NCBI GenBank assembly: GCA_964016885.1
Contig: OZ024742.1
Coordinates: 4,030,001-4,094,000, forward strand
Length of the DNA: 64,000 nt
Direction: 5' to 3'
Source of the DNA: Eledone cirrhosa
Taxonomy: Eukaryota
Under the pieces are notes generated by a model. That model was not told where the DNA came from. It was given only the letters and a program-made list of their open reading frames with translations, and searched no databases. A program made the translations under genes and the position numbers. Positions 1,618 through 46,700 of this stretch are shown here, in pieces (the first letter of the stretch is position 1; each line of letters starts with the position of its first letter).

Positions 1618-4550
1618 ATATTAGTGAAAAAAAACAAATGAACTATTATGACATTATAACAAGTTTATTGCCGACAGCCGTTTCGTCCGACCATATTGAT
1701 GGACTTTTCAAGGCATATAACATGTGATTGTAAGATCATTATTTACATCAACGTATCACTCAAGACTAGCAGTTTGAAATTGTGGTATACATCAGCAGCT
1801 TCGCTTGTATAGTTGGGGTCTATATTCTAAGGGGGCTCTTTTATATTAGTTGTCGGGGTCAGGGATTGAAGGTTAAAAATTAGATAATATATAATTTACG
1901 CATTAAAAGTAAAGATTAAATTAGAAGACTTGGGATCCCGTAGAAGCACCTTAAAAAATACCTCAATAAGTGCATAAAGCTTACAGGCTCCAATAAACCT
2001 AATAAACTAGGAGAAATTAAGAGGCTAATAAAATAAAATAAAAAAATAAAAAAATAAAAATATAGAGTTTCCCTAAAAATATAAAGTTTGCTAAGAAATT
2101 CCTTCGATAGAAAAAAATTTTTTTCGAAAGAAAAAAACTTTCTTCCCCCGAGATCACGTTAACAAATTTCAGAAAACTTACGAGGTTTTGATATTCCCTA
2201 CTAAGTTGAAAGAAACTAATCAATTAAAGGTTAATTCAAAGAGCCGTCAATAAATCTCTCAGAAAAGGCCCCTTTAATATTTTTACTAGGAGCTTCCTCC
2301 GAGAGACCCTTCGAAGAATTAAAATTTTAGAGAGCCCTTAAGGATATATATAAACGAATTGAGGAAAATTATAAATTAAAAGTTAAAAATTACGGTATTT
2401 GGGATATCCGAGGAATTTTCAAAGGGCTGCTTCAACAGATACAACTTAGGCATAATAGATACAATTATTTAAGTAATTTAAGTAATTTAATTAGGGAGCA
2501 ATTCAAAGAGTTTATCAAGTTGGGCAAGATTAAAGAAAGTGGTAAATAAGAAAATACATAAGCAAAAAGACAATAATTATAAAATGTATTTTTAAGAAGG
2601 TATAAGGTAGCTTCAGTAATCTAATAATGTACTATCAAAAAATTAAGGATTAACAAAGACATAATAATATATTCCTGCCTAATTAACAAGTAATCAATAC
2701 ACTATTAACAGTCAGGCAAAATTAGCTCAGGGATATCCCGCGCTCGGATACTTTACACACACACAGCAACACATAGGATTAACACAGACATAATGGTATT
2801 TTCCTGCCTAATTAACAAACAATCAATTAACAATTGATGGTCAAGAAAATGTACTCAGGGATATCCCGCGCACGGATATTTACATACATACAGCAGGATG
2901 AACAGTACTGGTGACCGTGTGGGTGCGATATCCATTATGCGTATGTAGTCATCTGCATAGCTCCAGGCACAGTTGGTCTTGTTTAAAAGTTCATAGTCCA
3001 CGGATCAACTGTGATTCACTATCAGCTGTGTCGACTCTCTGGGAAATGTACCTGTGGATCAAATAGCTAGTGGTTGCTGGGTGTGGTCCGTTCGATTTGT
3101 TAGTTTTGGGGGTTGCACGCGTTTGCGATAGATCAGCCTGCCGGTTCTAAATCCAAGGTCTCGCTACATAGGATGTATTGGTCTACATGCTATATTGGTA
3201 AAAAAACCAGTGTGGATTTGACTGGGGTGGTGTACTACGAACTCCAAGCCCACACGCGACTGGTCAAATGCGAAGAGCTGTCCCCTCTTTGTTTGCTGTA
3301 TGGGTCGGTTCCAGCTTAGATGGTGGTCGTGTTATCCATATTCCGTCAGCCCTGTATATTCAAGACAGATCAGGGTATATATTTGCGGGTATGGTCCGGC
3401 GTCTACGCTATCCAAAGGGTCTCTCTTGTGGTATTTTCAAGTTCGCATGATCTGTCTTGAATATACAGGGCTGAATACATTTTATAATTATTGTCTTTTT
3501 GCTTATGTATTTTCTTATTTACCACTTTCTTTAATCTTGCCCAACTTGATAAACTCTTTGAATTGCTCCCTAATTAAATTACTTAAATTACTTAAATAAT
3601 TGTATCTATTATGCCTAAGTTGTATCTGTTGAAGCAGCCCTTTGAAAATTCCTCGGATATCCCAAATACCGTAATTTTTAACTTTTAATTGATAATTTTC
3701 CTCAATTCGTTTATATATATCCTTAAGGGCTTTCTAAAATTTTAATTCTTCGAAGGGTCTCTCGGAGGAAGCTCCTATAAAAATATTAAAGGGGCCTTTT
3801 CTGAGAGATTTATTGAAGGCTCTTTGAATTAACCTTTAATTGATTAGTTTCTTTCAACTTAGTAGGGAATATCAAAACCTCGTAAGTTTTCTGAAATTTG
3901 TTAACGTGATCTCGGGGGAAGAAAGTTTTTTTCTTTCGAAAAAAAATTTTTTCTATCGAAGGAATTTCTTAGCAAACTTCATATTTTTAGGGAAACTCTA
4001 TATTTTTATTTTTTTATTTTTTTATTTTATTTTATTAGCCTCTTAATTTCTCCTAGTTTATTAGGTTTATTGAAGCCTGTAAGCTTTATGCACTTATTGA
4101 GGTATTTTTTAAGGTGCTTCTACGGGATCCCAAGTCTTCTAATTTAATCTTTACTTTTAATGCGTAAATTATATATTATCTAATTTTTAACCTTCAATCC
4201 CTGACCCCGACAACTAATATAAAAGAGCCCCCTTAGAATATAGACCCCAACTATACAAGCGAAGCTGCTGATGTATACCACAATTTCAAACTGCTAGTCT
4301 TGAGTGATACGTTGATGTAAATAATGATCTTACAATCACATGTTATATGCCTTGAAAAGTCCATCAATATGGTCGGACGAAACGGCTGTCGGCAATAAAC
4401 TTGTTATAATGTCATAATAGTTCCTTTGTTCTTTTTCACTAATATTTCTGCTCTGCTTACACGTATAGAGCTTAACTAGCTACCGTCACAAATTTGGTAG
4501 GTCAGACGTGATCATCGCGATTCACATACGACCTACCATACATCTTGCTT
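1618..4550. mobile_element. Fold-back PLE-like element: ~970-bp inverted arms (1618-2590 / 3474-4445), ~880-bp spacer, ~105-bp unique tail (4446-4550), flanked by (TA)n
   Basis: Arms are near-exact reverse complements (ORFs 2017-2223 - and 3840-4046 + differ by 1 aa). Each arm has an HHR-like motif near its outer end. No RT recognisable. Confidence 0.8.
4348..4394 (+). ncRNA. Hammerhead-like motif with variant core (mirror copy 1669-1715, -)
   Basis: TGCC-TTGAAAA-GTCC..GGAC-GAAA-CGGCTG-TC-GGCA: stems I and II pair, GUC triplet present, core UUGAAAA instead of CUGANGA. Confidence 0.65.
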
Positions 4551-4654
4551 ATATATATATATATTTATATATATATATATATATATGATATATCCCAAAG
4601 CTCTCATACCATCAACACAATAAACACAGAGCTAGCATATCTAAGAACTGACTA

Positions 4655-4710
4655 ACTGCCTGATGAGGTCATAGCAATTCAATGGCTATCATCGAAATAT
4701 ATATAGCAGT
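4655..4710 (+). ncRNA. Minimal type I hammerhead ribozyme in a ~170-bp TA-flanked insert (4588-4757)
   Basis: ACTGC-CTGATGA-GGTCATAGC..GCTATCATC-GAAA-TATATA-TA-GCAGT. Confidence 0.85.
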
Positions 4711-4789
4711 AAATAAGGGATCATGAGTTCATGCAATTGAGTTATGTTTCGTCACTATATATATATATATATATATATATATATATATA

Positions 4790-44280: not shown

Positions 44281-45402
44281 GTAATTAATCATTTCATTTC
44301 TCTTCAAAATATTTATCATTAACCGGATTATTTATGTCAGGACCTGGTAGACCCTATTTTTCATTCTTTCACTCCTCTCTAATCTAATTAAACACATTTT
44401 GTATTTGTCTACTCCATCATCGATTTAGTCCTTAGTTAAACAACTTTGCTTCTCTATAGTTAGCTGTTAATATCAACACTTAGTAATTATAGCTTTAAAT
44501 CTACCTACAAATTATACAGCAATGAACAGAGGTTAGATACAGATATTCCTGATGATTTATATGTAACAATTATAGTTACTTTAAATAGCTAGTGAAGCGT
44601 TGATTCATTAATTATATGGTAACATAGATACAGACTTTAAGTCTCGTTAATTTTTTCATCTTTAAATAATCAATTAATTAAAGAAATAATTAAGCATGGC
44701 ATAATTCATGACAGGAATGTAATTAAACGTAAAATAAGTGAAACAAATTACCTAAAGGTTTTCATACACACTTTGCTGGAGAATTAAATAGAACTCCGTG
44801 GCATTTGATGGTGTGACTCAGTCGTTTCATTAAAGCAACAGACTGCTATTAAATTAACGTTTCAATTGCTAACGATTCCACAGACACGTGTTTACTTGTT
44901 GCCAGAGAGATTTAACGTGTCTCACAAAATTCGTCTTTCTAATAACAGTTTCAGTACATCCGACGGAATACTAAATAATTTCCGCCTACCAAATTCCTTC
45001 ATAAGTTTTAAGTCGAACCACGTCTAAGGTAAATGTCAGATATTGGTATGGAGTGTACAGAGAGATTGGCAGGGCATTGCTGGAGAGCAAATGACGATAT
45101 TGTTAGGGAAGTTGTTTTGAGGGTGCCAACTCAAAGAAGAGCAGAGGACAAGTGAAGACATATATCAAACAGATTTGTGACAACATAAACGGCAATCCCT
45201 CTTATCTGCTGAATATGATAAACAATAGAATTGGACAGCGACAGAGAGTCAGGGGAATATGTGAAAGCAGTGAGACCTATTGATTGATTGGAATCGACCT
45301 TATGAGTGCGAAGCAAACTTCATAAATATTTTGTCATGCTGCACTTTAACCCCTGCTGTTACATTGTTTTATATTGTTTCAAGTGGTGAAATGACAATGT
45401 GG

Positions 45403-45617
45403 TTAAAGGTACAGGTATGTCTGTTTAATTAAAGGTGCAGGTATGTCTGTTTAATTAAAGGTACAGGTATGTCTGTTTAATTAAAAGTACAGTCTGTTTA
45501 ATTAAAGGGACAGGTATGTCTGTTTAATTAAAGGGACAGGTCTGTCTGTTTAATTAACGGTACAGGTATGTCTCTTTAATTAAAGGGACAGGTCTGTCTG
45601 GTTAGGGGTACAGGTTA
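45403..45617. repeat. 26-bp minisatellite AAAGGTACAGGTATGTCTGTTTAATT, ~8 copies
   Basis: Direct reading. Confidence 0.93.
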
Positions 45618-46330
45618 AGCCATTGAATTTGTCTGTTGTTGGTGAACATCTGCATCTTTATTCCTGTAACCGTCCCAGGAATTACCTTTGCTTCTCAGTT
45701 TTTTTTTTATATCTGTTGATGTCCTTGTAGTTTTGTGGGCAAACATGTAGTTGCCACCTTTTCCTTTTATGTTAATTTTGGAATACTAAGACCTAATGAA
45801 AATCTGCTAGACTTTTTCATGAGGGAATACGGCTACATCCTTCATTCGATGTGTTGTTGACACTGTTGTTTTCCTGCCTCTATGCTGTTATTATTTCATA
45901 CGTATCTTCCATGCAGTTTCTTAATGTTGCACAACCTGGACTCAATATTATGCAATTAATGTATGTAACTAGTTGGTGAGTAATAATGTGTTACTATTGA
46001 GGGCATCTGTTTGGGAACCCTGTGTGTTTACGTGAATGTGATATTAAGTGTTAGAAGTGTTTATTATGACCGATATCAGATTGTTAGTCTAATATGCGGA
46101 GAGTCTATATTAAAAAAGATTGAGCGAAGTTTCAGCTTGATATATTTTATGCTTGATCCCGCGTTATATATATATATATATATATATATATATATATATA
46201 TATATATATATATATGTATGTATGTATGTGTATATGTATATATATATATATATATATATATATATATATATATATATATATATATATATATATATATATG
46301 TGTGTGTGTGTGTGTGTGTGTGTGTGTGTA

Positions 46331-46700
46331 TATTAGAAAGTGAGGTCTTTTTACAAAATGAAAAATAACCGAGGTGTCCTACACGTGTGAAAGTATAAAG
46401 AAAAAAAGATGAAATCGAAAATGCAACTGGAGTCTTATTTAAAAAAAATATATATATTTATTTGGTTCCTTTACCGGTTTCGCAGTTCTTCTGCTTTTCA
46501 AAAGTAGAGTTGAGATGGAGGGTCTGTGGTTTTTCTCACATCTGATGTGAGATGTGAGAAAAACCACAGACCCTCCATGTCAACTCTACGTTTGAAAAGC
46601 AGAAGAACTGCGAAACCTGTAAAGGAACCAAATAAATATATATATTTTTTTTAAAAATAAGACTCCAGTTGCATTTTCGATTTCAATATTTGTTTCCTTA
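46331..46700. mobile_element. Tail + palindromic HHR terminus, same family as 4790-5215
   Basis: 46395-46542 mirrors 46550-46700; microsatellite flanks. Confidence 0.85.

Follow-up and report, generated by a model that had tools for sequence, protein, structure and literature searches.

A 64,000-nucleotide stretch of the Eledone cirrhosa genome (contig OZ024742.1, positions 4,030,001 to 4,094,000, of a 3.0 Gb assembly; hereafter the window) contains about 18 inverted-repeat insertions bordered by (TA)n. They were delimited by self-BLAST, as a repeat finder was swamped by microsatellites. Judged by their sequences, these palindromes are Penelope-like elements (PLEs), mostly of the Hydra clade, inserted head-to-head in (TA)n. 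The two outer ends of a pair lie at fixed TA-rich sites, each 5' of the same hairpin, and this arrangement probably results from twin priming on one RNA. One outer end carries a tail and the other does not; we call the tail-less end site of each family S1 and the tail end site S2. The original prediction for this DNA had described the structures correctly but did not recognise their Penelope-like identity, and inverted arms and one-sided tails had already been published for PLEs.

Two fixed end sites and TA microhomology

The nine junction strings on which two-ended priming from (TA)n was first proposed are all present in the window, at their position or within 2 nt of it, and in every one of the nine cases the partner arm runs into (TA)n at the junction point. 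Two of the readings had to be amended. The junction at 31352 is a deletion in that single copy, the family S1 being TTCTTCTT TATATA|ctccag, with a longer run. For the one at 24763, the shared run is TATAT.

Independent copies had been said to end at about the same point. The genome was searched with body-only queries of nine families (best 40 candidates scored, best 30 loci per search used), and the 3' ends were bimodal, falling at S1 and S2, in every family mapped. In family A, 19 of 42 matches ended exactly at S1 and 20 at +102/104. The corresponding values were 17 of 51 and 23 at +93/94 in family H, 25 of 59 and 27 at +85/87 in family I, 19 of 45 and 19 at +68 in family M, 17 of 42 and 16 at +61 in family O, and 20 of 48 and 25 at +37-42 in family E. 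Families B and N showed some spread of ends at S1. One of the compared pairs of copies, 17136 and 24430, does not share its end point, as the former stops about 10 nt short.

A palindrome scan of the collected loci retrieved 213 matches with one arm in (TA)n, forming 70 clusters. A further 111 inverted matches had no end in (TA)n and 29 had two; these 29 look mostly like alignments extended into flanking repeats. Microhomology was measured as one value per family, requiring an in-register junction and a tail of 25-250 nt. This left 46 of the 70 clusters, the other 24 having no such tail or arms out of register. TA microhomology at S1 averaged 2.61 nt over these 46 families, some of which are related and a few of which are not true S1 sites; it was at least 2 nt in 36 and at least 4 nt in 12. 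Random positions in the same sequences (65.6% AT) gave 0.94 nt in random phase and 1.65 nt in the best phase. None of 100,000 draws from this AT-matched null reached the observed sum (p about 1e-5). In the 20 multi-member families the microhomology was 2.9 nt.

One tail per pair

We collected 113 head-to-head pairs from eight families, setting aside 11 with unresolved middles and two with a non-terminal end. Of the 100 contiguous pairs that remained, 96 have exactly one tail, with one end at S1 and the other at S2; under independent choice of ends, the binomial p is 3e-24. All 11 pairs with unresolved middles likewise combine S1 with S2, and the tandem family N is one-tailed by its outermost ends in 13 of 13 cases (one locus being listed twice).

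The tails are about 55-175 nt long and end upstream of the ATG. Among the 96 pairs, 36 have equal arms, 28 have a tailed arm shorter than its partner and 16 a longer one, and in the other 16 the tailed arm consists of the tail only; several tailed arms end within about 10 nt of S1. Tail-only pairs contain no duplication, their two arms sharing no sequence, and three of them lie in the window (17136, 24086 and 30995). In LINE-1 (L1) twin priming, a single RNA is copied from both strands of the target and the two cDNAs are linked head-to-head; one primer lies at the poly(A) end and the other at an internal site that varies, and the outcome is an inversion only. By analogy, the layout of the tail-only pairs is that of an L1-type twin-priming inversion. 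The claim that the process duplicates rather than just inverts thus holds for most pairs; duplication is not obligatory, given the 16 pure inversions among 96.

The inner arm ends also cluster, at about 150 nt above S1 in family B, 198 nt in E, 157-190 nt in I, 166 nt in M and 74 nt in O. In E, I, M and O they lie upstream of the hammerhead core, so cleavage does not set them there. As a guess, transcription may begin at these points, or short master copies may have their 5' end there.

An internal tail end in five families

One of the two primers had been placed at the RNA 3' end, which is contradicted by copies that continue past S2. Tandem or full-length copies of this kind were found in families H (L141), I (L142), A (L268), C (L381 and L382) and N (in the window). 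The TA run at S2 is ATATATA in H (7 nt), ATATA in I (5 nt), TAT in A (3 nt) and ATAT in C (4 nt), and is ambiguous in N. It is followed by a second hairpin (H2; the one after S1 is H1) in A, C, H, I and N, and the sequence runs onward into the open reading frame (ORF) in A, C, H and I, with the ATG about 45-50 nt beyond S2 in C and I. The continuation in C was found by a pattern search designed after the motif was known from other families (2 of 8 matches). In A, C, H, I and N, both S1 and S2 are therefore internal, and S2 is not the RNA 3' end.

For families B, E, M and O, a continuation past S2 was sought in the collected copies and none was found; S2 priming in read-through (UA)n is possible in these four. 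In element B, an inner copy of the tail (4996-5068) was not used as evidence for sequence beyond S2, because its TA may be target DNA. In the L1 form the first primer sits at the RNA 3' end and nothing is duplicated; here S2 is internal in A, C, H, I and N, and duplication is absent from only 16 of 96 pairs. The PLE process works like twin priming and differs from its L1 form.

Paired bulged hairpins

Both S1 and S2 lie just 5' of a hairpin of the form RCUC-stem-UN-GAGY. In the DNA, RCTC comes 0-9 nt after each site; next are an upper stem, a bulge of 2 nt whose first base is T, and GAGY. With the layout taken from the sequence only, this rule is obeyed in 22 of the 46 clusters; the fixed-layout test replaces an earlier covariation test that optimised pairing and whose p-value was discarded. 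The hairpin covaries across the 22 families: 62 of 66 upper-stem cells are paired, a count that drops to 39.1 if partners are swapped and to 18 or 13 after a one-base slide. The stem is closed by A-T in 10 of the 22 clusters and by G-C in 8. The upper stems contain six G-T pairs and no A-C, which suggests that the hairpin forms on the sense strand.

Related ORFs were also retrieved from metagenome contigs (78 loci, 57 with usable upstream DNA). At least one hairpin was present upstream of 37 of the 57, and two in 12, compared with 3 of 168 control windows inside ORFs. Their typical distances upstream of the ORF match are about 105 and 45 nt. Of 46 metagenome loci checked for a 3' copy, 19 gave matches uncut by the contig end, and 13 of the 19 stop 0-6 nt before a hairpin. 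They mostly enter (TA)n, and one enters (ATTT)n with a matching overlap; these stops and entries were read by eye.

Element identity and clade assignment

Elements C and H carry broken ORFs on the minus strand that join a reverse transcriptase (RT) to a GIY-YIG nuclease, the single-ORF organisation of PLEs. The Pfam match to GIY-YIG is weak (E 0.0026, under the curated cut-off), and 107 longer homologs, mostly of about 700 aa, were retrieved. An ORF remnant was looked for in the B, M and N references and none was found. The typical PLE layout of a partial tandem with pseudo-long terminal repeats (pLTRs), an inverted 5'-truncated copy and an optional tail is present in L141, L142, L268, L381 and element N of the window.

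Type I hammerhead cores, a pLTR feature of PLEs whose cleavage is predicted, were detected by pattern in families E, H, I, M and O, and only degenerate candidates in A, B, C and N. An Rfam scan of the window listed no hammerhead, returning sub-threshold matches only, mostly microRNA-like hairpins from palindromes and simple repeats. In H, I, M and O, the cores of the two arms point outward; the outer ends are therefore the element 3' ends and the arms join head-to-head. A canonical core also occurs at 4660-4697, within a short insert (4640-4720, plus strand) that has a TA array on either side.

The Hydra-clade assignment follows the motifs as defined in PMC8557442. The motifs RIRWR/RIRWH and SDKT/ADKT occur in A, C and I, with the nuclease C-terminal; H has SDKT, and a stop codon breaks the RW motif in the copy read, while RMRWK occurs in homologs. 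The C and H translations show a CxCx5C linker, no CCHH, and CxxC and CxH around the conserved E and N. Insertion preference for (TA)n, a Hydra-clade trait, is seen at the loci retrieved from the genome, and the supplement of PMC8557442 has entries for an octopus Hydra-clade member and for (TA)n preference. Family E differs: its translation (L238) has the linker and nuclease cysteines of the Neptune/Nematis type, to which it appears to belong, the two clades being taken together. Naiad/Chlamys elements, with an N-terminal nuclease, DKA and no hammerhead, were considered and ruled out, as here the nuclease follows the RT and DKT and hammerheads are present.

Source of the arms and their junction

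The two arms of a pair are closer to each other than to other family copies in I (0.6 vs 4.3% divergence), M (2.0 vs 7.3%) and E (2.4 vs 3.8%), and marginally so in A. This similarity points to a common source. In B and O, the arms are no closer than family copies, which also argues against general gene conversion between arms. At the centres, near-blunt joins account for 14 of 96 pairs (53% in simulated blunt joins), overlaps of 2-3 nt for 27 (16% simulated) and insertions of at least 4 nt for 21 (1.4% simulated), several of these being local repeats. The simulated-join null was used because an exact-match null for centre overlaps is not comparable with BLAST overlaps.

A proposed mechanism and its alternatives

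In the mechanism that we propose, the GIY-YIG nuclease would nick both (TA)n strands, and a single tandem or circular transcript would be bound by two RT subunits, at H1 and at H2. Circular PLE templates have been proposed (PMC4209133). At S1 and at S2 alike, one of the target 3' ends would anneal through about 2-7 nt to the UA-rich stretch 5' of the hairpin. If the copy started at S2 halted before S1, the product would be a plain inversion with a tail-only arm; if it passed S1 by strand displacement, the region would be copied twice, giving a palindrome. Short microhomology or templated insertion would finally link the 3' ends of the two cDNAs head-to-head. PLE RTs are not known to have RNase H. 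The core of the original prediction, that both strands prime at TA-matching sites and the products join head-to-head, is supported by the one-tail rule and by tails on either arm. It also fits the tail-only arms, the private variants common to both arms and the repair-like centres.

Several points weigh against this mechanism. Four pairs break the one-tail rule: one is cleanly two-tailed (L280), one has a partial tail, one has a microsatellite at its centre and one is a pairing artefact in element B of the window. The excess of shorter tailed arms is weak once tail-only arms are removed (28 vs 16) and possibly due to ascertainment. Microhomology is short, with 0-1 nt in 10 of the 46 families. 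The fixed rule finds the hairpin in only 22 of 46 clusters, B having a variant and E none, and yet E is one-tailed in 19 of 20 rows. When tested, a constant spacing between hairpin and start found no support (standard deviation 2.5 nt from either edge). The similarity of the arms does not imply a single RNA molecule, and it is missing in B and O. Genomic 3' ends lack H2, so that copying the ORF from S2 would need a putative tandem or circular RNA. A Poseidon element in vitro is described as starting at sites not homologous to the cut DNA (PMC11167929).

The ends could instead be cut sites, if the nuclease resolved a DNA hairpin or concatemer by a staggered cut at S1 and S2. Such resolution is put forward for PLE tails in the text of PMC8557442, and a TA-preferring enzyme would also yield the TA overlap and exactly one tail. 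We regard it as unlikely, since the tail-only arms (16 of 96) share nothing with the other arm and no duplex would span both sites. The G-T pairs, moreover, favour RNA or a sense single strand, and RT starts are reported to coincide with tail ends in vitro for the Poseidon element (PMC11167929).

Two-ended priming might also involve two separate RNAs, or the tailed arm might start at the RNA 3' end, in (UA)n added by read-through. This would suit the genomic 3' ends without H2, the families B, E, M and O in which no continuation past S2 was found, and the B and O arms that are no closer than random copies. We give it a similarly small chance. Independent RNAs would yield zero- and two-tailed pairs, H2 is conserved directly after S2 in five window families and across metagenomes, and a number of tailed arms break off no more than about 10 nt from S1.

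Fold-back of a single cDNA, its second arm ending by annealing at the TA motif of S1, appears very unlikely overall. Self-priming has been suggested for head-to-head PLE junctions (PMC3846280), arms are equal in 36 of 96 pairs, some centres are near-perfect hairpins, and some equal-armed pairs could have formed in this manner. Of the 96 pairs, 44, with A and H of the window among them, have a tailed arm that is the shorter one or only a tail. A tail cannot be copied from a long strand that lacks it, nor a longer strand from a short one, which excludes simple fold-back as a general route. Later loss of one of two original tails, by deletion between the internal TA and the flanking (TA)n, is hardly credible: these copies do include microhomology deletions (at 31355 in the window and in L141), but it predicts many two-tailed pairs in the young families A, C and N (98-99% identical), where there is one clean case, and leaves tail-only arms and hairpins unexplained.

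Returning to twin priming on one RNA, we see about an even chance that it is a programmed route. In that case, Hydra-clade PLEs would carry paired RT landing pads, each a hairpin after a UA run, from which a dimeric RT-nuclease primes both target ends on one RNA, and the one-tailed inverted repeats of PLEs in general would be its footprint.

Relation to known systems

Compared with LINE-1 twin priming, the two sites of the PLEs described here are both fixed, internal and marked by hairpins, and most events duplicate. Hydra-clade PLEs as presented by Craig et al. 2021 (PMC8557442; including Hydra-1_Obim of Octopus bimaculoides) have the same C-terminal GIY-YIG, RW(K/R/H), DKT, CxCx5C linker, CxxC/CxH around E/N, hammerhead and (TA)n target. 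Their layout is also alike, with partial tandems, an inverted 5'-truncated copy and a tail often at one end. The elements described here differ in their tails of about 55-175 nt that end upstream of the ATG. That account ascribes tails to nuclease resolution, and its available text mentions no one-tail rule, no tail-only inversions, no homology to the target and no paired hairpins. Inverted PLE arms with a tail often at one end are likewise described in the text of PMC3846280 and PMC2377424.

The Poseidon PAc element in vitro (Frangieh et al. 2024, PMC11167929) is similar in that two internal RT starts bound the tail and both target strands are nicked and extended; a dimer model is given and uncleaved RNA was used. 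It differs in that the starts lie in the ORF at an AC-rich stem-loop and are reported as non-homologous to the target, and a head-to-head product or coupling of the sites is not described in the available sections. Animal non-LTR retrozymes (PMC7229834; bioRxiv 10.64898/2026.07.22.740005) are short non-coding hammerhead derivatives of PLEs, some of them in tandem, as in family N; insertion ends, palindromes and priming signals are not treated in the accessible parts of these accounts.

Subscription papers, Repbase notes and figures aside, literature searches found neither this hairpin nor a one-tail rule nor PLE twin priming described. Already known are inverted pLTRs, tails on one side only, and RT that starts at two internal sites in vitro. 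What appears to be new is the coupling rule of one tail per pair, the homology to the target at each of the two internal sites, and the duplication of the RNA signal.

Insertions in the window

The tail is on the short arm in A and H and on the long arm in C. Element A (1618..4549) has a long tail-less arm on the minus strand with S1 at 1618 and a shorter tailed arm on the plus strand (S1 4445, tail 4446-4549, S2 4549); its H1 (4450..4471, plus strand) reads GCTC-stem-TA bulge-GAGC, and a family A ORF is present in L268. The short, non-coding element B (4791..5218) has its tailed arm on the minus strand (S1 4852, S2 4791) and a tail-less plus-strand arm ending at about 5215-5218, before which lies the inner tail copy; its hairpin is the variant. 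A second B-family pair (46329..46700) has a minus-strand tailed arm with S1 at 46394 and a tail-less arm ending at about 46700.

Element C (5230..12844) has a long tailed arm on the minus strand (S1 5330, tail 5329-5230, H1 5275..5324) with the broken RT and GIY-YIG ORF from about 10134 to 7599, and a short tail-less arm on the plus strand ending at 12844. An extra rearranged piece lies at its centre. In element H (18379..23363), the long tail-less minus-strand arm bears the broken ORF (21659 to 20331) and a hammerhead at 18462-18443, and the short tailed plus-strand arm a hammerhead at 23185-23204, S1 at 23268 and S2 at 23362/3. Internal direct repeats occur in the 3' untranslated regions of C (7280-7633 and 10031-10793) and H (19456-20047).

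Element D (15824..16285) is tailed on the minus strand (S1 15932, hairpin 15925-15896), and its tail-less arm enters (CT)n and then (TA)n. Element E (16333..16769) has its tail-less arm at 16333 and a tailed arm with S1 at 16723, a tail of about 42 nt and no GCUC/GAGC hairpin. (CT)n or (TCTA)n that extends the last bases of the element often lies between element end and (TA)n (16286-16291, 37839-37866 and E-family loci), possibly by slippage during priming. Element G (17394..18272) is tailed on the minus strand (S1 17492, hairpin 17490-17455, tail end uncertain), with the tail-less arm ending at 18272.

Element I (24430..24851) has a tail-less arm at about 24430 and a tailed arm with a hammerhead at 24664-24704, S1 at about 24764-24767, a hairpin at 24768-24787 and S2 at 24851. 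Three insertions are inversions without duplication: an I-family one (17136..17378; tail-less arm minus, tail-only arm plus) that matches 24378-24872 by self-BLAST, an H-family one (L081, 24086..24369; tail-only arm minus, tail-less arm plus) and an M-family one (L311, 30995..31242; a tail-less arm and an arm stopping at S1). Element M (31287..31822) has a minus-strand tailed arm with a deletion at S1 (31355), a tail-less arm ending at 31822 and hammerheads at 31451-31406 and 31729-31773. At 30160-30285, 31173-31356 and 24863-25212, copies of the same family face each other across a (TA)n array, which suggests repeated insertion into one array, or into an array left by an earlier copy.

Element N (36827..37800) combines a minus-strand tail-less arm with a partial tandem of a 594-nt unit on the plus strand; its terminal tail ends at about 37800, and the plus-strand read-through from S1, H1 and tail into S2 and H2 lies near 37205-37230. 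Element O (37866..38072) has a minus-strand tailed arm (S1 37927), a tail-less arm ending at 38072 and hammerhead-like cores at 37994-37973 and 38005-38026. A further one-tailed pair, absent from the original prediction, lies at 39704..40051 (S1 39775, hairpin 39769-39751). In element Q (60125..60272), with S1 at 60157 and a hairpin at 60148-60125, the tail is cut short and the tail-less arm ends at about 60270.

Other features of the window

An unbroken 1216-aa ORF at 49931-53581 (minus strand; RVT_1 E 2e-29, weak zf-RVT) looks like an intact non-LTR retrotransposon of another class, and frameshifted LINE-like remains, with two similar ORF1-like frames and an RT region, lie at 53948-59300 on the plus strand. 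Two broken frames at 31955-32841 (minus strand) presumably resemble a hAT-type transposase. A short repeat family is dispersed in both orientations (13587-13782, 42361-44280, 47614-48807 and 61346-61560) and is not tied to the (TA)n palindromes. The window also contains a long (TAG)n at 27687-28579, a related array at about 59300-59950, and a satellite of 52-56 nt units at 61583-64000.

Implications

About 22 one-tailed palindromes, two or three of them doubtful, were counted in an evenly spaced sample of 400 kb, which scales roughly to 10^5 genome-wide. Such long, near-perfect inverted repeats could feed double-stranded RNA; a high level of hyper-editing and a high inverted-repeat content are described for octopus in the text of PMC5625713. 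The origin of the tandem and inverted structures of PLEs and their microsatellite targeting are named as an open question in PMC8557442. The paired hairpins with their UA runs give that question a defined RNA signal and sharp predictions. If the reading is true, these would be retroelements that prime both target ends by design, which would bear on second-strand synthesis in target-primed reverse transcription and on telomerase-related RTs.

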